Source of the DNA: a virus
Length of the DNA: 33,260 nt
Strand: one strand, 5' to 3'
IMG/VR virus record: IMGVR_UViG_3300036939_000084
Location: 1-33,260 of that record
The notes beneath the pieces are model-generated. The model had not been told where the DNA came from and ran no database searches. It saw only the letters and a list, made by a program, of their open reading frames with translations. Position 1 is the first letter of the stretch. Every line of letters begins with the position of its first letter. Below, piece by piece: positions 1,614 through 24,364 of this stretch. A program made the position numbers and the translations under genes.

Positions 1614-3803
1614 CTAGCTTTGCAGACGAGAAGCGAGCTTGGTGTTTCTGGCTTGAATCTTGTTGGTCTTCACCGCAACCTGCAAGGGCTTCTCTTCGCC
1701 GACGAGGATAACCAGCTTCTTTGCACGAGTCACACCCGTGTAAAGAAGGTTCCGCTGCAACATCATGTACTGCTGCATGGAGACAGGAATGATTACGACG
1801 GGAAACTCCGCGCCTTGGGCTTTATGCACCGAAATGCTGTAGGCCAGCATTAAGTCGCTCAAATCGGAAAAGGTGTATTTGACTAGCCGCCCTTCTGGAT
1901 TGTCCAGATCGGGGAAACGGATCTGCACCTCTTTCTCCTTGATGTCCAGCTTCTCAATCTTGCCGATGTCGCCGTTGAAGACGCGCTTGTCATAGTTGTT
2001 ATGGCATTGAATTACGCGATCACCAACCCTGAATTGCCCTTGTTCTATCTTTCCCCCAGCCTTGGGATTCCAAGCCTCTTGAATCAACTTGTTCAACTCG
2101 ATATTGCCGCAATCACCCTTATGCATGGGAGACAGACACTGAATATCGTCTTTGTTCCAACCCAACTCAGGTAGCTTCTCAGAAACCAGCCATTTGATTG
2201 CTGATGGAATTTGCCCCTGGGAACAGTTAACCCAAAGGGCGTCGGTAGTAGGAATACCAGATGAGCGACCGATTTGTTCCAGAACAGGCATCTCTCCCTT
2301 ATTAATCATTAGCGAAGCCTGGATGATGCGACTCGTTGCCGCTTGGCGGAATATTTCGGTTAGTCGAGCCACAGGAATTTCACCAGAAGCAATGATGTCC
2401 CGAAGAACGTTCCCAGCTCCCACTGACGGAAGCTGATTTACGTCGCCCACTATAGCAACTGAGGCATGGGGCGGAATAGCCTCAAACAATGCATAGGCTA
2501 GTAGCAGGTCAACCATAGAGGATTCATCGATCAGAAATGCATCACCAGGAACGGGGTTATCTCGGTTGTGCGTAAATCCGTTTCCCGTCCAGCCGAGCAA
2601 GCGATGAATTGTACTCGCATTGGTTAAGCCAGTGGCTTCTCGAATACGTTGTGCAGCTTTGCCTGTTGGCGCGATCGCGACTATTCTTTTATTAAGTTTG
2701 TGCCAATATTCGGCGATCGCTTTTGATACCGTGGATTTTCCGACGCCGGCCCCACCTGTAATTACTGTTAAACCATTCGACTCAACGGTAACAACAGCAT
2801 TCTTCTGACCTGCTGCCAACTGAATACCATTTTTGTCCTGACATTGTCGCAACCATTCATCTATACTTACTGCGTTGATTGCGCCACTAAGTTGTTTAAT
2901 CTTCTGAGCAAGTTCAACTTCTGCCTGATGGTACGAAGCCAGATAGACATCTTCCTCTTCTTCCACCAATCGTTTGTGGAACTTAGTTTTAATTGATTTG
3001 AGCTTAGTTATAGATTCTATTACTTCTTCTGTTTGAGGCTGATATCCAGGAAGAGCAATCAATTCTTTCACCATTGATTCCAGTTCGGGGCGAGGTAGGA
3101 AGCAGTGTCCATACATGTTCGCCACACCCCTCAAGACGTGAAGGATTGCAGCCTGAATGCGGATAGACGAATTTGGATCTATTTCCAGTCCAAGTGCTAC
3201 TTCATCCGCTTTTTTAAACCCAAATCCACGAACCTCTTCAGCGAGGATGTATGGATCAGCCTTGATTCTCTGAATCGAATCTTCTCTGTACTCCTTATAA
3301 ATCCGAGGAGCGTAGCTAGCCGAGACCCCAAGCTTATGTAGAAATCCGATCAATCTACTCAATCCTTTGGTTTCGTTGAAGGATTTGATAATTCCGGGCA
3401 GGTTTTTTACACCGATACCCCGAATGGTTAGGAGTTGGTCTGGATCTTCCTCAAATACGAGTAATGTATTTTCTCCAAATTTCTCAACAATTTTTCGAGC
3501 GGTAGATTCTCCCAGCCCCTTCAGGGTCGAGATATATGCGACTAGCGCTGTGTCTCCTGTTGGGTCGGGGATTTCGTAAGACACAAAATTAAACTGCTCA
3601 CCATAGCGGGGATGTGTTTTCCAGTTCCCGCGCAAGGTTACCCTTAAACCTTTTTCCGCATCTGGCATAACGCCGGATGCGGTAGTAATTTTGAAGTCGT
3701 CGTCAGCTATTCTCAGGACGACGTACCCAGTATCAGCAGCCTTGAAGGTGACAGTGTTGATAAACCCTACCAGCTCAATTGTCTGAACGCCTTGCGCTTG
3801 CAT
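1614..3803 (-). CDS. recD2: ATP-dependent RecD2-like SF1B DNA helicase
   Basis: N-terminal OB fold (HPRYGEQF), HhH repeats, Walker A GGAGVGKS, IDESSM, GDVNQLPSVG, LTEIFRQA, YSISVHKAQG and LYTGVTRAK. Confidence 0.95.
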   Translation of the reverse strand: MQAQGVQTIELVGFINTVTFKAADTGYVVLRIADDDFKITTASGVMPDAEKGLRVTLRGNWKTHPRYGEQFNFVSYEIPDPTGDTALVAYISTLKGLGESTARKIVEKFGENTLLVFEEDPDQLLTIRGIGVKNLPGIIKSFNETKGLSRLIGFLHKLGVSASYAPRIYKEYREDSIQRIKADPYILAEEVRGFGFKKADEVALGLEIDPNSSIRIQAAILHVLRGVANMYGHCFLPRPELESMVKELIALPGYQPQTEEVIESITKLKSIKTKFHKRLVEEEEDVYLASYHQAEVELAQKIKQLSGAINAVSIDEWLRQCQDKNGIQLAAGQKNAVVTVESNGLTVITGGAGVGKSTVSKAIAEYWHKLNKRIVAIAPTGKAAQRIREATGLTNASTIHRLLGWTGNGFTHNRDNPVPGDAFLIDESSMVDLLLAYALFEAIPPHASVAIVGDVNQLPSVGAGNVLRDIIASGEIPVARLTEIFRQAATSRIIQASLMINKGEMPVLEQIGRSSGIPTTDALWVNCSQGQIPSAIKWLVSEKLPELGWNKDDIQCLSPMHKGDCGNIELNKLIQEAWNPKAGGKIEQGQFRVGDRVIQCHNNYDKRVFNGDIGKIEKLDIKEKEVQIRFPDLDNPEGRLVKYTFSDLSDLMLAYSISVHKAQGAEFPVVIIPVSMQQYMMLQRNLLYTGVTRAKKLVILVGEEKPLQVAVKTNKIQARNTKLASRLQS

Positions 3804-6006: not shown

Positions 6007-6810
6007 CTATTCGGCTTTTCTGTCTACGATTGGGATGATATTCCGAGCCAGGGATTCTTTTACAGCGTCGAGTGGTTTCAATCCCTGATAGACGACAAGG
6101 CGTGCGCCCAGTTCTTCAACCTGGGAAATCCAGCGCAATTCGTCTGTCGTCAGTGCATCTCTCAGCTTACTCCGGTCTTTAACCTGGAGATCGAGACAAA
6201 GCTTCTTAGCTGTACGACCAAACAAGCCAATATTCAAGGCGTCAGAACAATGTTTATACATCCATTGTTTGGCGTTTTCTGAAAGTTCATCTTTGTGTTT
6301 TTCGATGTACCATTGGACAGCATCGGTCATGTCTAAGCGAACTTGCTTGCCTTCCTGTCGTTTCTTCAACCAGTCTTGGCGATCTTCTTGATCGAATTGA
6401 ATCCCAAAGGCGTCACAGAATGCTTGTTGCAATGACAATCCAGCTAAGTCAATCAATAACTCTGTAGCAGTGCCACTTCCAAGCCTTGAGCAGATCTTGA
6501 GGAACAAGGGAAGTTTTCCAACACTAAGTAAATCGGCTTTTTCGTTAGCCCCTTCAATCGAGACCTTTGGATGTACTAAAAGTCCTTGTGGAGCAAGGGT
6601 TTTAGCCTCTTCCGAAGATGCTGCGCGGATGTACCGTTTTGCTGCTTGACTCCGCTCATATTCTGGATAAGCCAAAAGAACAGCCTGTGTTTTACTAACA
6701 CCGAACTTGTTCGTTGGAGTCCATAAGTTTTCTGGCAACAAATATCCTTCGATCAAAATATTTCCAAGCGGAACTTCAGCACGAATCGCTTTTGTATTAG
6801 AATTGTCCAT
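6007..6810 (-). CDS. Antirepressor-like DNA-binding protein, paralogue 1
   Basis: ATG at 6810 chosen by alignment with paralogue 2. N-terminus resembles P63C-associated antirepressor domains. The last ~115 aa are near-identical to 14734..15531. Confidence 0.7.
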   Translation of the reverse strand: MDNSNTKAIRAEVPLGNILIEGYLLPENLWTPTNKFGVSKTQAVLLAYPEYERSQAAKRYIRAASSEEAKTLAPQGLLVHPKVSIEGANEKADLLSVGKLPLFLKICSRLGSGTATELLIDLAGLSLQQAFCDAFGIQFDQEDRQDWLKKRQEGKQVRLDMTDAVQWYIEKHKDELSENAKQWMYKHCSDALNIGLFGRTAKKLCLDLQVKDRSKLRDALTTDELRWISQVEELGARLVVYQGLKPLDAVKESLARNIIPIVDRKAE

Positions 6811-6896
6811 GTTGTTCGCCACTTGTTCTGGCGGATAGCCCCAGCCATACTTGCGATAGGGGGATGGTGAGACATCTCCTGTTTCGCGCTGGGTTT
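6811..6896 (-). ncRNA. Structured 5' leader RNA, copy 1
   Basis: Stems CCCAGC/GCTGGG, GCGA/TCGC, AGGAGATG/CATCCCCCT and CGCCA/TGGCG; TGTTAAAAT -10 upstream; conserved with copy 2. Confidence 0.65.
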
Positions 6897-7011
6897 TCAC
6901 TTCTTAATTTTAACAATTAAATTAAAAATTACTTGTCTGCAAAAATACAATTTTGAGCTTATTCTTTGCAGTAAATAATGTTTCTTACATTGCTTATATT
7001 AAAGGTTTAAT

Positions 7012-14733: not shown

Positions 14734-15531
14734 CTATTCGGCTTTTCTGTCTACGACCGGGATGATATTCCGAGCCAGGGATTCTTTTACAGCGTCCAGT
14801 GGTTTCAATCCCTGATAAACAACAAGGCGAGCACCTAGTTCTTCAACCTGGGAAATCCATCGGAGTTCGTCTGCGGTGAGCGCGTCTCTCAACTTACTCC
14901 GATCCTTGACATTGAGATCGATGCAAAGCTTTTTGGCGGTACGACCAAACAAGCCAAGGTTTAAAGCATCTGAACAGTGTTTGTACATCCACTGCTTCGC
15001 GTTTTCCGAAAGTTTGTCTTTGTGCTTTTCGATATACCACTGGACGGCATCGGTCATGTCTAAGCGAACTTTCTTCCCTTCTTCCCTTGCCTGGAATCGC
15101 TCATTCCGTTCTTGTTCCGTTCGGAAAATCCCGAAGGCTTTGTCTGCTCGACGCTCAATGGACTCGGTGTTAGATGCGATCAACATACTCAGGGCTTTTT
15201 GATTGCCCTGAAGTGCGAAATGTCCCCAAATATGTCCAGCGTCTTCTATTGAGACGGTTTGAGCTTTTCTTGCTTTTGCCTCATTTTGAATAGAAACAGA
15301 CAAACGCGAACCTCTAAAACCCCTTTCTAGTAAGGAATTCAGGATGTTTTTCTTCTTTGACGCTAACTCCGAAAACCAGTTGGGTTTTTCGTTTATTCGC
15401 TCCAGCACCTGGGACTGGCTGAGCCTGTACTCGCCATATTCCGCTTGATACTTATCTTCAATGCGGAAAACTTCCAATTGCTCTGAGCCATGTTGGATTA
15501 CAACACGCTCAGCTTTTGCGATAATATCCAT
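14734..15531 (-). CDS. Antirepressor-like DNA-binding protein, paralogue 2
   Basis: Same leader and C-terminal domain as 6007..6810, with a divergent N-terminal domain (LEVFRIED...EYRLSQSQV). Confidence 0.7.
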   Translation of the reverse strand: MDIIAKAERVVIQHGSEQLEVFRIEDKYQAEYGEYRLSQSQVLERINEKPNWFSELASKKKNILNSLLERGFRGSRLSVSIQNEAKARKAQTVSIEDAGHIWGHFALQGNQKALSMLIASNTESIERRADKAFGIFRTEQERNERFQAREEGKKVRLDMTDAVQWYIEKHKDKLSENAKQWMYKHCSDALNLGLFGRTAKKLCIDLNVKDRSKLRDALTADELRWISQVEELGARLVVYQGLKPLDAVKESLARNIIPVVDRKAE

Positions 15532-15618
15532 GTTGTTCGCCACCTTGTATGGCGGATAGCCCCAGCCGTACTGCGATAGGGGGATGGTGGAAACATCTCC
15601 TGTTTCGCGCTGGGATTT
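15532..15618 (-). ncRNA. Structured 5' leader RNA, copy 2
   Basis: Same stems as copy 1 with differences mostly in loops; TGTTAGAAT -10 upstream. Confidence 0.65.
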
Positions 15619-17068: not shown

Positions 17069-20000
17069 ATGGCAGTAATTCGTAGATTTGGTAGCAAACC
17101 GGGTGGTCCTGGTATTGTCGTCAATGAGCGGTCAGGAATTAACCAAATTCCTGATCCTACCTATGGTTCAACTTTTATGTTGGGCGTCCTCAAGCGTGGG
17201 CCAATGGGCGTAATTGTCCCAGTTCGCAGCAAGCGGCAGTACAATTTAATCTTTGGCGATCCATCCGACGACACCTGGCCTCTTTTTACGGATAGTTCGC
17301 ACCTTTGCCCTGATGCGATTGATGGATTTTTCTCCACGGGAGGTGGGGCTGGGGTTCTGATGCTTTGTCGTCCGGAGTTAGACAAAACCGCTCGTCCAGC
17401 CGAGAAAATATTCAAGGGGCGGAATGGAGCGGAAGTCTTACGTGTAAAGGCGAGTAATGAAGGACGTTGGGGAGGAGCCGCAAATAAAATCGCAGCCACT
17501 CCAATTGTTTACGCTACATCTCGAACATTCACCCTTGTTACTCCTGGGGTAGAGCGCAATGAGTTTAGAGATGCAGATGCTAAATTCTCCAATTTAGATA
17601 ATCGCGTCTACAAAATCGTCTCTAATAGCAAAGCTGATCCCATTTCAGGAGAGACGATCTATACTGTTGGGGCGCAATACGACTTGGTTCGCGAACGTGT
17701 GTCGGGACCTGTGGCAATGACGGGAACCGCAACCTACTCTCCGTTCACTGCACTAACTGGCACAATTGCTTACCCTCTCTATAATGCCGTCACGGGAACA
17801 GCCAGTATCAACGAGCGAGTGATTACAGGTGTTGGCACGTCTTTCTCAACCGAGCTTCAAGTTGGAAATAATATTTATTACAACGGCGAAGCAAGGGCGA
17901 TTGAGAGTATCACTAGTAACACCACTCTTACTGTTGCTGAAGCATTCTCTATTCCCACAGCCAATAACGTCAGCCTACAGCGAGACAACCTGGTAGTAAC
18001 AGGCACCAACAGCCAATTCACGACTGAGCTGGCTGTTGGTGATGAAATCTTTGTTGAGGTTAACGGCATAAGACAGGGACGAGTCGTGGGCGCGATCGCC
18101 TCTCCGACTGAACTCACTTTAAATTCTGGTTTCTCTGACGAAGTAGGCGCAGGAACTCAAGCCACTCGGCGCAACTTTACTTTAAGGGGTACAGGTACCG
18201 CCTTCTTGGCGGAAATCAAACCGGGAGAATTCATTGTAGATCCCAACCGAGCAGGGAAAACCGTTAAGGTTGTAAGGGTTGTTTCCAACACAGAAATAAG
18301 GCTTGAAAAGCCATTCCAGATCAATTTTGCAGATGCACAATTGACTCGACAGCCGTATTTAGCGACTATTGAATATACGCCAGCTAAGTACGAAGGATTG
18401 GCGATTGAGATTAGTCAAGGACTCAAAAAGCCCGAAACACATTTTACGCTTACCGTTTTCTTCAACGGCTCACAAGTTCTTCAGGTACCCGACTGCTCTC
18501 TGGATCGGAATGATCCAGATTTTGTCGATACCAAGGTAAGCAACGCCAATATTGCTCACGCCACCGGGACTCGAAACTACGCCCAGTGGATCGAAGCCGA
18601 GTCTTTGTGGTCGTCAACCTATACCACATCTGAGCAAAACGATGTACGTCCTTGCAACGGGTCGGGCCAGATCGTCCACTTGACCAGCAACACGATGTTC
18701 ACCGTTGCTGACTTAGATTGGGGCAACCTAGTTGGTCAAAGGGTTTATCCCAACCCCTACGAGTACTATCGCGACTTTTATACTATTCAGCAAGCTTCTG
18801 CTCCTATTTCCTTGGAAGGGACAGTTTCTTCTGCTGGGGTAAACGTTACAGGAACAGCGACTCGGTTTGCGTCCCAAGTTAAGGCTGGACAATACTTTTA
18901 CGATCCAGCGACTGGAACGGCAAGAAAAATTCGTTCTGTACTTAGCGATACCCGCCTTGTTTTGGATACGCCCTTCCCCATAAATATGGCGGCTGGCACT
19001 AAAGGAACAATAGCTGGATATATTGCTGTAGGTGAACGGTACGACCTACGGATGGCGACAGAAGTAGGCACTAATCTGCTTGTTGTGCAGCCGCAATACC
19101 TAGAACGTGGCTACGACGGCGATACGGGAACACTAGCCCCCCATTACTTCACCCAATACCTCGATATTGATTACAATTTCATCGAGAAGTACACGCTGAA
19201 TCGCAATCTAGGTTTAGTCAAAATCGCTGTCCCTGGTATTTCTGACGAGACGATTCAGAAGACTGGAATTTATTACGCTCAGCAGCAGGCGTACCAGTAC
19301 CGGGCAGAAATTCCTAGCTACATTACCAACCCGTCTGTGGCGGAGGCATATGTCCTCAACAATTTGGGTCGTAGCGACTTTGAAGCTGTAGCATTTCCAA
19401 GCTACGGTACCATTGCATCGCCTTTTAGTGGGAGCGATCGCCTAATCTCTCTAACTGGTGAAATCCTAGGAGGAGAAGCAAGACAAGCTATCACATATTC
19501 CGGATACCATTATCCATTCGCTGGTTTGAGATCTGTAATGCCGCGAGTACTGCGGCTCCCGGTCGGATTGGATATGGACGACGAAGCTGTTTTAAATATG
19601 GCGGGTATTCAACCTATAAAGATTTTGGACGGTAATGCCATTGTCTTTGGTGCTCGCATTCCTGCCGAGAGTGGTGTATACGACTTCAAACACATCCGCG
19701 AGATTCAGTCGAATTATATTCGAGTATTCTTGGAAGCTCGCAACCTTTTAGAGATGCTGTTTCAGCCCAATCAGCCAGGAGTCCTCAACGAAGCAATTTT
19801 GTTACTCAATGAATTCGCTCGTGGAGAATTCCGTAAAGGCACCATCACTCAGTACCTGAGCTTTCAGCAAGCGGTTAGCGTAACCAGTGATATTCAGTCA
19901 AATACGGCGATCGCGGGAAGTGATGCCAAGTCTTCGTTGATTGCCATCATTAACGGCAAACTGAACATCAAATTTACCTACACCCCAACTGGGATTGTTG

Positions 20001-20074
20001 AGGTGTTGAATGTGACGGTTGGTCCAGACTTACTTGCTGAATCGTTTGGTCAATCTTTGGCTAGCGCGGCTTGA
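17069..20074 (+). CDS. Contractile tail sheath protein with inserted repeat domains
   Basis: N-terminal PGIVVNE...G...RGP....V.S......FG and C-terminal LNMAGIQPI...VFGAR...HIR...FQPN sheath motifs. Confidence 0.9.
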   Translation: MAVIRRFGSKPGGPGIVVNERSGINQIPDPTYGSTFMLGVLKRGPMGVIVPVRSKRQYNLIFGDPSDDTWPLFTDSSHLCPDAIDGFFSTGGGAGVLMLCRPELDKTARPAEKIFKGRNGAEVLRVKASNEGRWGGAANKIAATPIVYATSRTFTLVTPGVERNEFRDADAKFSNLDNRVYKIVSNSKADPISGETIYTVGAQYDLVRERVSGPVAMTGTATYSPFTALTGTIAYPLYNAVTGTASINERVITGVGTSFSTELQVGNNIYYNGEARAIESITSNTTLTVAEAFSIPTANNVSLQRDNLVVTGTNSQFTTELAVGDEIFVEVNGIRQGRVVGAIASPTELTLNSGFSDEVGAGTQATRRNFTLRGTGTAFLAEIKPGEFIVDPNRAGKTVKVVRVVSNTEIRLEKPFQINFADAQLTRQPYLATIEYTPAKYEGLAIEISQGLKKPETHFTLTVFFNGSQVLQVPDCSLDRNDPDFVDTKVSNANIAHATGTRNYAQWIEAESLWSSTYTTSEQNDVRPCNGSGQIVHLTSNTMFTVADLDWGNLVGQRVYPNPYEYYRDFYTIQQASAPISLEGTVSSAGVNVTGTATRFASQVKAGQYFYDPATGTARKIRSVLSDTRLVLDTPFPINMAAGTKGTIAGYIAVGERYDLRMATEVGTNLLVVQPQYLERGYDGDTGTLAPHYFTQYLDIDYNFIEKYTLNRNLGLVKIAVPGISDETIQKTGIYYAQQQAYQYRAEIPSYITNPSVAEAYVLNNLGRSDFEAVAFPSYGTIASPFSGSDRLISLTGEILGGEARQAITYSGYHYPFAGLRSVMPRVLRLPVGLDMDDEAVLNMAGIQPIKILDGNAIVFGARIPAESGVYDFKHIREIQSNYIRVFLEARNLLEMLFQPNQPGVLNEAILLLNEFARGEFRKGTITQYLSFQQAVSVTSDIQSNTAIAGSDAKSSLIAIINGKLNIKFTYTPTGIVEVLNVTVGPDLLAESFGQSLASAA

Positions 20075-20138: not shown

Positions 20139-21640
20139 ATGCCCATCCAACTCAACAAAGCAGTATTAGAACAAAACATCTTTACCAAGGCAAACCAGAC
20201 CCTAACCATCACGGGTCTAGGCAGGATGCTCATCTTGAGTCGAGATGCCATTACCTTAGAACAACCAACCATTGAATTGGCAGAGTGCGACTCGTTCGCA
20301 GCCTAATACATAAGCTGCGGTGAGAATGACAAGGTAGAACCTTGAAAATTCCATAACTGTTCCTTGGATGGAGGTGCAAATCCTCCCCTTCAAGGTTAGA
20401 AGTGACTCCCTATCTGTCCACGCCGAGGTTAATCACCAGAGCGAAGCTGGAAGCAGGGCGCAATCAGAGCTGAAACAGATTAAGCACACTGGCGCTAATG
20501 GGGAGATACTATGGTGAACTTAATGTGAAGCACCTGAAAAAACGCCTTAACACAGAGCAAGAATCTGTTCATATCTTGACTCAACCATCTGTAAACTCGC
20601 AGTAGAGCTGCCAATAACTGTATAACCATGAGTTGGTGGTAGGCGAAGTGGTGACACCTAAGGTATCAAAACAATCTAAGGAACGGAACGAGGAAAAACG
20701 TCACCGACTTTGTGGGGTTGACAACCTACATGGGAGGTCGTGATTAAACTTCTATCGGAAGGTGACGGGTAGGATGGGGGAATGAAACTACCCCCGGCAA
20801 CCGAGAAGTCTAGGAATGGATTAGACTATGCGTAGACAGCCTGCTATACCTAATACCAAGAAGGATAACAGTATGACTGACGCGGACGGGCAACCTGCCA
20901 AGGTTCGATGAATGGCTAAGAAAGGACTAGATGGAACACAGGCAAGAAAATACAGGGAAACACATGTCATGCAAGTAAGTTGGAAGAGTTGACCTCGAAA
21001 GACTTAAGACGGTGACAAGGTGGAAGTCAATTCCTGAAAACAGCTTGTGAATGGGATTTATGGGTATGTTGCCCAGTTACCCGGTGGTTGCTAGGAGCCG
21101 GATGCGGTGAAAATCGCACGTCCGGTTTTGAAGGAGAGGTGCATCACAGCAATGTGGACATCGACTCTAACCAAAACAAATGTCCCAGGTGGTCGTAACA
21201 ACCCAGGCGAATTTAACTGTGTCGTGCAATTAGCTCACGATGACATGCGGCGCAAAATGATTTCTTGGTACCATCAATGCTTAAACTATGGCAACGGCGT
21301 TAACCCGAACTACAAAAAGCCTGCGCTGTTAACTTTCAACAGGCATTTCCAGGGTGCGCCTGATGCTCAGTTTGGGAACGGCTCCTCCGCTCGCAACCCC
21401 TTGAACGTCACGATTCTGGGCACATGGCCTAAGTCGTGCGAGATTCCGGAATACTCAATGAGTGATGGAGATGACGGTGACGCTGATTGTCAGCTGACAC
21501 TGAACCTGTCCTACGATGATCTGGAGTTTGAGAGCGGAGAGGTTGATGCCCTAGGTGCTCTTAGTGGCTATCAGTCTTCCCGTAGTGTCACTCAGAATGT
21601 CGCGGGTAACGTGACTGGATTCTTGGGCGTTGGTGGCTAG
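20139..21640 (+). CDS. Tail tube protein, spliced (exon 1 20139-20284, exon 2 21172-21640; 204 aa)
   Basis: Follows the sheath gene. Joined exons total 615 nt in frame (..IELAD|KTNVPGGR..). Tube-like motifs SWY..C, ILGTWP and LSYD. Confidence 0.85.
20285..21171 (+). mobile_element. ORF-less group II intron (IIB-like), 887 nt
   Basis: 5' GTGCGA; domain V GAGCCGGATGCGGTGAAAATCGCACGTCCGGTT; domain VI ending CTCTAAC; EBS1-like CTGCCAAT (20608-20615) complementary to the exon end; no RT ORF. Confidence 0.93.
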
Positions 21641-22659: not shown

Positions 22660-23925
22660 TCAGTTCTTTCCCTTACGGGCTTTGCCAGACGACTTGCAAT
22701 GCAGGCTTGCGCCAACATTGTAGAGGTCGAGCTGTTCCTGAGCGTTAATTCCCGTGTGCCCCACGGTATTTTTTCCTAACATCTCAAGCGCTCTCATTAA
22801 GATGTTGATTGCTGCGTTCTCGTCCCTGTCCAACACAGTTCCACATTTACAAACGTGAGTTCTAACGGACAGCGATTTTTTTACGGTTATTCCGCATCCT
22901 GAGCAGTTTTGACTCGTGTGATGAGGAGGAACAGCAACGACAACTTTATCAAACACCTTGGCAAAATATTCAAGCCACTCCCGAAACAAAGACCAACTAG
23001 CATCACTAATAGATAGTGCAAGCCTGCGGTTTTTTATCATGTTTCGGACTTTCAGATCTTCATAGGCTACCAAATCGCTAGATTGGATTACGCACCTTGC
23101 GGTCTTCACCACAAAGTCTTTACGTCGCCTACTTACTTCTAAATGTTTCCGAGCAACCTGAACTCTTGTCTTGTGATAGCGCTTGGACTGGGGTTTCTTA
23201 GTCTTGACCATCTTCTCGCCTTTTTTCCCTTTGTTGGGATTCCTATATCTACGAGAAAGTCGTCGTTGCGACTTCTTCAGCTTCTTGTGAGCTTTCCGTA
23301 GATGGCGAGGATTATCAACTTTTTTCCCATTAGAATCGGTCAAGAAATGGGTTAAACCTACGTCTATTCCAATCTCATTTCCAGTATATTGAGACTTCTC
23401 TTTTCTCTCAACATCAACACAAAACTGAGCGTAGTAACCATCAGCTCTTTTTACAATTCTGATGCGCTTTATCTGCTTGATGTCATAGAAATTAAGGTCA
23501 CGAGTTCCTTTGAGCTTAAAGCTTCCAGCTTCAAAACCATCCGTCAGAGTCAGGGTTTTCCTGTCCTTAGATAGCTTCCAGCCACTGGTCTTGTATTCAA
23601 CCGAACGACTGTGCTTCTTAAAATTAGGAAATCCCTTTTTCCCAGGTTTATGAGCCTTGCAGTTATCAAAAAATCGACTAATGGCAAACCAGGTTCGGTC
23701 AGCATGAGCTTGACGAGCCATTGAGTTGAGCTTTTTTGCCCAAGGGAACTCCATATTGGAGGCTAAGACCGCACAGTATTTCTGTAGGTCATTTTTAGTT
23801 GTGCCTTTATTATCCATCCAGTACTTGAGGCAAGAATTTCTAATAAATTGCCCCGTCCGAATCGCCTCATCAAGTTTGGCGAATTGGACAGAACTACCTT
23901 TCAACTTGCTCTCAAATACCAGCAA
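22660..23925 (-). CDS. tnpB: TnpB RNA-guided endonuclease
   Basis: RuvC motifs GIDVG, YEDL and DRDENAA; zinc finger CSGC..CKC. Confidence 0.95.
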   Translation of the reverse strand: MLVFESKLKGSSVQFAKLDEAIRTGQFIRNSCLKYWMDNKGTTKNDLQKYCAVLASNMEFPWAKKLNSMARQAHADRTWFAISRFFDNCKAHKPGKKGFPNFKKHSRSVEYKTSGWKLSKDRKTLTLTDGFEAGSFKLKGTRDLNFYDIKQIKRIRIVKRADGYYAQFCVDVERKEKSQYTGNEIGIDVGLTHFLTDSNGKKVDNPRHLRKAHKKLKKSQRRLSRRYRNPNKGKKGEKMVKTKKPQSKRYHKTRVQVARKHLEVSRRRKDFVVKTARCVIQSSDLVAYEDLKVRNMIKNRRLALSISDASWSLFREWLEYFAKVFDKVVVAVPPHHTSQNCSGCGITVKKSLSVRTHVCKCGTVLDRDENAAINILMRALEMLGKNTVGHTGINAQEQLDLYNVGASLHCKSSGKARKGKN

Positions 23926-23968
23926 TGTGTGATCTCCGCTATGATTATTGATTATACAATAATTGTCT

Positions 23969-24364
23969 ATGAATCAGCAATACCGACACAATCGGCACTC
24001 GGTTTCCTTGATGAACTTTCATTTCGTCTGGATTCCTCGTAGACGAAGGAAGGTACTTATCGGTGAGGTAGCAACAAGATTGGAGGAAATCATCAAAGAA
24101 GTCTGTTCTGAACTAAGTCTCAACATACTGGCAATGGAGATTATGCCAGACCATATCCACTTATTTGTCAGCTGTCCTCCTAGTATCGCTGCCGACCAGA
24201 TTATGTTCAGAATCAAAGGTCGCAGTTCTAGGGTTTTAAGAAAAGAGTTTTCTCACTTACTAAAAATGCCGTCGATGTGGACGCGAAGTTACTTCGTTTC
24301 GACGGCAGGTAATGTTTCAACAGAAACCATTAAACGGTACATAGCTGAACAGCGGAAAGACTGA
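23969..24364 (+). CDS. tnpA: IS200-family Y1 HUH transposase
   Basis: HFVW.P..R, DHIHL (HUH), KG.SS, W..SYF and YIAEQ. Confidence 0.96.
   Translation: MNQQYRHNRHSVSLMNFHFVWIPRRRRKVLIGEVATRLEEIIKEVCSELSLNILAMEIMPDHIHLFVSCPPSIAADQIMFRIKGRSSRVLRKEFSHLLKMPSMWTRSYFVSTAGNVSTETIKRYIAEQRKD

Follow-up and report, generated by a model that had tools for sequence, protein, structure and literature searches.

Group II introns that lack an open reading frame are already known, as a class, from phage tail genes. A recent survey described 20 phage group II introns, six of which are ORF-less, together with matches in 9,229 IMG/VR contigs (Merk, Jones and Eddy 2025; PMC12350094); the record studied here may be one of these contigs. 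The ORF-less IIB introns of that survey include one of 683 nt in the minor tail protein gene of c-st and one of 671 nt in the terminase large subunit gene of LPJP1, as well as those of PALS_2 and Internexus, and a route from host to phage was offered there as a speculation from two examples. ORF-less bacterial introns nearly always co-occur in a genome with related introns that encode a reverse transcriptase (RT), as stated in the relevant part of PMC4424553. In Thermosynechococcus elongatus, according to the sections of PMC2882425 on these introns, ORF-less cyanobacterial introns are spliced and mobilised in trans by a related RT. Here, we analysed an ORF-less group II intron that splits the tail tube gene of a provirus, and compared it with the cyanobacterial intron family to which it belongs.

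A tail tube gene split by an ORF-less intron

The window analysed comprises the first 33,260 nt of the IMG/VR record IMGVR_UViG_3300036939_000084, which is 107,263 nt long and classed as a provirus; the exons, the intron with its elements and the gene directly upstream lie on the plus strand. Within it, an intron of 887 nt (20285-21171) separates exon 1 of the tube gene (20139-20284; 146 nt, i.e. 48 codons plus 2 nt) from exon 2 (21172-21640; 469 nt). Removal of the intron joins the two ORF fragments, as a sequence-only reading of this DNA had claimed, into a single frame of 204 aa with the junction GCA GA|C AAA, and the product differs from an intronless database protein (P0001) by one residue, V128I. 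Unspliced RNA read from exon 1 reaches a stop at 20306 and would yield a product of 55 aa (P0022). Starts within the intron (21107, 21128 and 21152) were considered as another source of tube protein and rejected: the product would miss residues 1-49, which include four predicted strands. Full-length tube protein from this copy needs the intron removed, in line with that part of the sequence-only reading.

The assignment of the gene itself rests on profile and fold. A profile built from 36 relatives matched T4 gp19 (E 1.3e-5), Afp1 (E 3.9e-5) and also Pvc1, with exon 1 covering profile positions 2-45 and exon 2 assigned by frame, profile and fold. An AlphaFold model of the tube protein (mean pLDDT 72, with about 35 extra C-terminal residues of low confidence) retrieved Pvc1, Afp1, T4 gp19 and the P1 inner tube in Foldseek with a probability of 1.0 and TM scores of 0.56-0.74 depending on the target, and it also matched tube-fold proteins of phages. 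Pfam, PHROG and NCBIfam models gave no match to the protein. By profile and predicted structure the gene is a contractile tail tube gene of the gp19/Afp1 fold, in agreement with the identity first read from the letters; tube-fold paralogues, e.g. tail completion proteins, score alike, and its placement downstream of a sheath gene rests on a sheath inferred by position. The same profile matched only the two exons across the 107,263-nt record, with no second tube gene.

Directly upstream lies an intact gene of 1001 aa (17069-20074), a probable tail sheath gene by its position and size. It had no Pfam or NCBIfam match, and it is 78% and 42% identical, with no stops, to the genes preceding the tube gene in two relatives. 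Repeated inserts within it match tail-fibre PHROG models. The tube gene and its relative from the intronless phage G693 differ by 97 silent codons and only 5 residue changes over the first 165 codons, therefore indicating purifying selection on the tube gene in this lineage. The genes common to the record and G693 contain no in-frame stops; wherever the comparison did show stops, the frame was antisense or the match a weak paralogue. The two have a shuffled gene order: a RecD2-like helicase is encoded at window positions 1614-3803, and its G693 homologue directly follows the tube gene. The window also holds a paralogous gene pair (6007-6900 and 14734-15543) with nearly identical C-terminal halves, and the first gene of the pair matches a PHROG transcriptional regulator. 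A Crinalium MAG contig of 188.6 kb (G003:C27; loci L089-L094) carries related tube, upstream, terminase and other genes and is a candidate for a fuller genome of this phage group. Its tube gene is related and uninterrupted, and the same MAG holds both of the intron families described below, which ties the phage group to the intron-carrying kind of host without naming the host of this phage.

CheckV estimates the completeness of the record at 63%, so an RT or a second tube gene could sit in its missing part. Four TnpB-like genes and a HEARO RNA adjoining an IscB-like gene are present in the record; an IS200/IS605 element with divergent tnpB and tnpA lies at window positions 22660-24364, and the three further TnpB-like genes and the HEARO-IscB unit lie elsewhere in the record. 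Searches across the 107 kb for an RT (PF00078), a maturase domain (PF08388) and a second domain V or second intron returned none, the single match of an RT query (103205-103363) falling within the IscB-like gene. A related RT-encoding intron, which the sequence-only reading had suggested seeking in both replicon and host, was thus not found in the record and, as described below, is present in cyanobacterial genomes.

The intron has all six domains of a group II ribozyme. Its ends, GTGCG and AAC (the last bases being CTAAC), follow the 5' GUGYG and 3' AY of group II introns, and a consensus fold built from 10 family members comprises 261 pairs, 73 of them changed on both sides. Domain I (20291-20692) keeps 117/118 consensus pairs and has an AAGC bulge at 20444-20447, in line with the AARC bulge at epsilon' that defines IIB introns in PMC12350094. 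In the family consensus fold it is followed by domain II (20699-20767; 19/19 pairs), a linker and a short domain III (20776-20795; 6/7 pairs) abutting domain IV (20796-21092; 297 nt). Domain V, with its AGC triad at 21096-21098, and domain VI, with a bulged A at 21164, occupy 21095-21168 and keep 15/15 and 13/13 pairs. The Rfam model RF00029, whose gathering score is 40, matched 21093-21171 with 59.3 bits, its only gathering-level match in the window being this one and no other model reaching that level; the Rfam D1-D4 models gave no match to this intron even at E 10. The boundaries and the domains V and VI noticed at first are therefore borne out. The ribozyme core of the phage copy is as intact as any in the family, so its mismatches to the exons described below are not a sign of general decay.

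No stop-free stretch in any of the six frames exceeds 60 codons and domain IV carries no RT remnant, in keeping with the description of the intron as maturase-less; an ORF remnant of the T. elongatus type in domain IV was sought and rejected (best tblastn E 2.8, with the RT of locus L002 as query). The absence of a DIII-DIV linker, a stemless EBS2 and an insertion at the basal stem of domain I agree with the IIB2 (CL2) traits given in the corresponding part of PMC4649490, and the 5' end GUGCGACUC has 8/9 bases of the CL2 consensus GUGCGAUUC, which an RT-encoding sister intron (L107) has exactly. On the three structural traits we call the intron IIB2-like; the list of IIB2 introns in the supplement of PMC8643678 does not mention Crinalium.

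Exon recognition and the cyanobacterial intron family

How well does the intron fit its site? The register of the exon-binding sequences was fixed by covariation within the family. IBS2 (TGAAT, 20273-20277) and IBS1 (GGCAGA, 20279-20284) together span 20273-20284 at the end of exon 1; EBS2 is ACACA (20550-20554) and pairs with 3/5 bases of IBS2, while EBS1 is GCTGCC (20607-20612) and forms 5/6 pairs, with a G opposite the A at -1. EBS1 and EBS2 form 159/165 pairs across 15 members, whereas 10,000 reassignments of the exons gave 75 pairs on average and never more than 111. This count leaves out a near-duplicate of L002 (L060), one locus with no stem found (L047), one with no 5' end (L003), four whose 5' end was not found by pattern (L021, L044, L048, L049) and the duplicates L010, L016, L018, L024 and L041. 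Pairing is perfect (11/11) in 12 of the 15 members, which indicates that the family is actively homing even though it is ORF-less. The phage copy is the lowest, with 8/11 pairs, worse than any of its 14 relatives. EBS3 (G20648) pairs with C21172, the first base of exon 2, and in 13/13 family members having both ends the corresponding base is complementary to the start of the 3' exon, with four different bases involved; L003, a 5'-truncated chimeric copy with an EBS3 mismatch, was left out of this count.

The calculated energies differ between the two interactions of the phage copy. Its EBS2 duplex is not stable (+0.4 kcal/mol), and few family members have an EBS1-loop duplex as strong as its own (-12.7 kcal/mol). 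As initially observed, the EBS1 loop pairs with exon positions -2 to -9 and places a G opposite the A at -1. An EBS2a-like U at 20548, two bases 5' of EBS2, faces a T at -13; in relatives this exon position is A (14) or G (2) in 16/16 cases, which amounts to conservation rather than covariation since the U is invariant. The part of PMC8643678 on the EBS2a-IBS2a pair describes it as required for mobility and not for splicing. The delta base (20606) is A, compared with U in 13/15 relatives, and covariation did not locate delta'. The earlier proposal that GTTCA near 20567 acts as EBS2 gives way to ACACA: GTTCA pairs 5/5 with -8 to -12 in the phage copy, but its position shows no covariation, pairs only 2-4 of 5 bases (best of four registers) in all 15 relatives having it, and overlaps a loop complementary to another loop of domain I in a beta-beta'-like manner. 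We regard the 5/5 pairing in the phage copy as a real coincidence. In the record, 297 positions fit the EBS set at least as well as the tube site, 10 of these better (10/11), so the tube gene is not singled out; no fully matching predicted target was found in the record or in the loci retrieved.

Where does the intron come from? It matches cyanobacterial plasmids, best of all a full-length copy of 76.5% identity in Crinalium epipsammum, which interrupts the RT frame of a different intron. Scans with sequence patterns and searches of genomes added members from Crinalium, from Nostoc, from a Xenococcaceae MAG and from metagenomes. All are ORF-less, 798-957 nt long (13 with both ends) and without a stop-free stretch above 96 codons; they are 71-79% identical over their full length and sit at unrelated sites. 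Family matches occurred in 23/401 genomes sampled from the order and in 3/4 genomes of the Crinalium family. The best full-length relative found has 79% identity, and a near-identical donor copy was not found in cyanobacterial genome samples of 401, 401, 4 and 20. On the viral side, the intron had no match in 50,697 GenBank phage records, and scans of IMG/VR, in which closely related records may be lacking, gave no other copy with three intron patterns; exon patterns gave three matches there, all of them unrelated genes, and the exon 2 pattern gave none.

Several loci show the family together with other group II introns. Four members (L002, 1598-4445; L060; L017; L030) sit within other group II introns as twintrons, at an RT N-terminal motif, just upstream of the RT (L017) or within the RT frame. 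Conversely, other group II introns insert into or join domain I of family members at about the same position (L006, intron position about 233; L003, 2923-3001), and L007 (1312-2750) looks like a recombinant, in which domain I comes from this family and domains II-IV, with a frameshifted RT, from the sister family. A Nostoc plasmid carries an internally deleted member of 358 nt with both ends kept (L004, 3001-3358) beside short G-rich repeats; L008 likewise lies in repeats of this kind. In L040 (587-2677), a member splits a putative chromosomal-type oxidoreductase gene; its removal gives a frame of 389 codons, and its exon pairing is perfect.

The sister introns, which encode an RT, are 60-64% identical to the phage intron over the 5' domains and similar in domains V and VI. 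They matched in all five genomes checked, each of which holds a full ORF-less copy. Four of these genomes have an RT frame of 520-525 aa, and the locus from the fifth showed no long frame. The sister RT, which we take to be of the CL2 class, matches TIGR04416 and has 33-47% identity with the L002 RT.

Domain IV of the family contains a folded module with a three-way junction. A model of this module built from nine relatives matched in 32/151 cyanobacterial genomes. Among 20 loci scanned (L134-L153, of 30 returned), a HEARO RNA ends at most 70 nt upstream of the module on the same strand in 11, the module lies in or beside a group II domain V/VI in two, and an IscB match was seen in none. As judged from these sequence matches, the module is common to the intron family and to IscB-less HEARO RNAs. 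In L142 (1477-1687), it lies within a 211-nt RF00029 match and is apparently located inside domain V/VI of another intron. The phage copy shows two deletions relative to its relatives, 24 nt after 20843 and 44 nt after 20992, the latter being the module core; its remaining domain IV stems still fold, with remains of the module at 20954-21035.

Origin and splicing of the phage copy

Intronless alleles fix the boundaries of the intron. The IMG/VR contig L001 has an uninterrupted tube gene whose protein is 90% identical, and its DNA alignment to the record stops precisely where GTGCG begins; P0001 likewise reads through. The intron is absent from close relatives whose proteins are 89-99% identical, and in the 90% protein cluster 7/10 members read through the site and 3/10 start within or after the intron; the intron is therefore not fixed at this site across the lineage. 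Nor is it conserved at the site in the two related phage contigs examined. The 3' junction occurs in two protein variants, P0007 and P0010. P0010, on a contig of 742 nt, has an exon 2 identical to that of the intronless P0001 (contig of 1,897 nt), and the pair reflects either a mixed population or spliced RNA. The peptide across the 5' junction is on record for just one contig of 114,804 nt, which may be the parent of this record.

The poor fit to the site combined with an intact core makes an off-target landing guided by EBS1 and EBS3 the simplest reading. We favour, with a probability of roughly 60%, a recent stray jump of a host-family intron into the tube gene that is tolerated since the intron is spliced well enough. 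The intron would have left the host genome for the tube gene during a prophage stage of the phage, its RNA being mobilised in trans by the 525-aa RT of the sister family. This RNA would have reverse-spliced into the tube site via EBS1 (5/6, extendable to -9) and EBS3, with no usable EBS2. At late transcription the intron would be removed, alone or with a host RT, probably less efficiently than its relatives, and enough 204-aa tube protein would be made for the insertion to be tolerated. Since no RT was found in the record, a maturase, if one is needed, would have to come from the host, and such a dependence may have arisen as a side effect of the insertion. Taken by its sequence, the phage copy looks like a selfish passenger rather than an evolved control point.

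Would such an intron splice well enough? Replacement of IBS2 in RmInt1 left about 71-85% of excision and a change at -1 about 75%, whereas a combined IBS1/IBS2 mutant barely excises (experiments on excision in PMC3123198). An A-A delta pair is compatible with splicing in vivo in a IIB2 intron of Trichodesmium, according to the part of PMC4649490 concerned. In the phage copy, the -1 mismatch, the weak EBS2 and the odd delta are all combined, which counts against splicing, and the discussion of the T. elongatus introns in PMC2882425 expects efficient splicing just for well-matched introns and poor splicing of poorly matched copies. Splicing may accordingly be too poor, in which case the tube gene would in effect be knocked out and no tails would form unless an intronless sibling supplied the tube protein. 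We consider this unlikely, though it deserves the closest attention of the alternatives. The worst exon pairing of 15, the unstable EBS2 duplex, both deletions in domain IV, the provirus state with its four TnpB-like genes and a 5' junction found in one assembly only all fit a knockout. The fully kept catalytic core, the strong EBS1-loop duplex, the 3' junction in two variants, and exons and neighbouring virion genes free of stops speak against it, even if a very recent knockout would look alike.

A further possibility, to which we would give only a small chance, is that the tube mRNA splices only with the sister-intron RT carried by some hosts. The stray off-target insertion would then have made tail assembly, and hence the productive host range, depend on a host retroelement, and exon recognition may also have moved from EBS2 to the GTTCA loop.

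The imperfect pairing could also be secondary, the intron having homed long ago to a matching site, with EBS drift later on and a longer EBS1-loop pairing or GTTCA partly replacing exon recognition. The divergence of at least 21% from all full-length relatives found, the 5/5 pairing of GTTCA and the structure-preserving nature of the two deletions would fit such a history. We regard it as improbable: intronless proteins only one residue away point to a recent arrival, drift would require four or five changes among 13 exon-facing bases with 164/165 core pairs left intact, and GTTCA lacks covariation in relatives and overlaps the beta'-like loop. In the phage copy by itself, later drift of the EBS bases and an off-target landing would look alike.

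The sequence-only reading had gone further and proposed that splicing acts as a host- or condition-dependent gate on virion production. A gate under selection, coupling the assembly of virions to a maturase of the host or to conditions, would draw on the facts that the split gene is the sole tube gene found, that no RT is present in the record and that RT-encoding sister introns are patchy among cyanobacteria, the genomes looked at being the five that have them. However, intronless alleles outnumber intron-bearing ones (7/10 versus 3/10) at 89-99% identity, the intron is not conserved at the site in the two related phage contigs, Rfam detected no sensor-like element, and the host family is mobile among unrelated sites, of which the tube site is the worst fit. 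We therefore consider a gate very improbable; no report of regulated group II splicing of cyanophage virion genes was found in the literature searched, which was mostly non-subscription. That a host intron was stitched into a phage contig during assembly is hardly credible even for a metagenome-derived record, given that the GTGCG and AAC ends are exact and their excision restores the frame to the base, that EBS1 and EBS3 are complementary to these very exons, and that the 3' junction recurs in a second sequence variant (P0010).

Comparison with known systems

The off-target landing favoured here would be a clear example, open to tracing, of how group II introns of a host family get into a structural gene of a phage. 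Since covariation reveals which targets the family recognises, the phage copy offers a natural test of the exon mismatch that an essential gene tolerates, and also of any need of an ORF-less intron for an RT from the host. The family as such, with its many target specificities, its lack of an ORF and a domain IV module shared with IscB-less HEARO RNAs, is arguably more interesting than this insertion.

Like the ORF-less IIB introns of PMC12350094, the present one interrupts a gene for the virion or for packaging that also has intronless homologs, and c-st of that survey is a plasmid prophage whose host carries a diverged relative of its intron. Unlike those introns, it interrupts the gene of the probable major subunit of the tube, not of a minor tail protein, and has a cyanobacterial host, of which there is none among the 20 introns of Table S1. 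It also differs in its length of 887 nt, its structured domain IV of 297 nt and its imperfect exon pairing. LPJP1 has an RT intron in its own record, whereas the record studied here has none.

The closest cyanobacterial parallel is TeI3 of T. elongatus, which is mobilised by the TeI4c RT. As described in the sections of PMC2882425 on this intron, TeI3 is likewise an ORF-less IIB intron with diverged EBS sequences, most of its copies pair well with their targets, and twintrons inside RT-encoding introns occur as they do here (L002, L060, L017). There, too, poorly matched copies were interpreted as products of retrotransposition. TeI3 is a IIB1 intron with visible ORF remnants, as classified in the part of PMC8643678 concerned, whereas the present family is IIB2-like without an RT remnant; TeI3 is described from one genome and the present family extends over several genera. 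Cyanobacterial IIB2 (CL2) introns such as Trichodesmium Tr.e.I7, in the portion of PMC4649490 that covers them, share the consensus 5' end GUGCGAUUC, compared with GUGCGACUC and no ORF here.

Self-splicing introns in the tail tube and tape measure genes of Bacillus cereus group prophages, reported in the respective part of PMC2504315, have the tail tube in common with this case, but they follow group I chemistry in other hosts, whereas the intron described here is group II. The tube protein itself shares its predicted fold with T4 gp19, Afp1, Pvc1 and the P1 inner tube at 10-21% identity.
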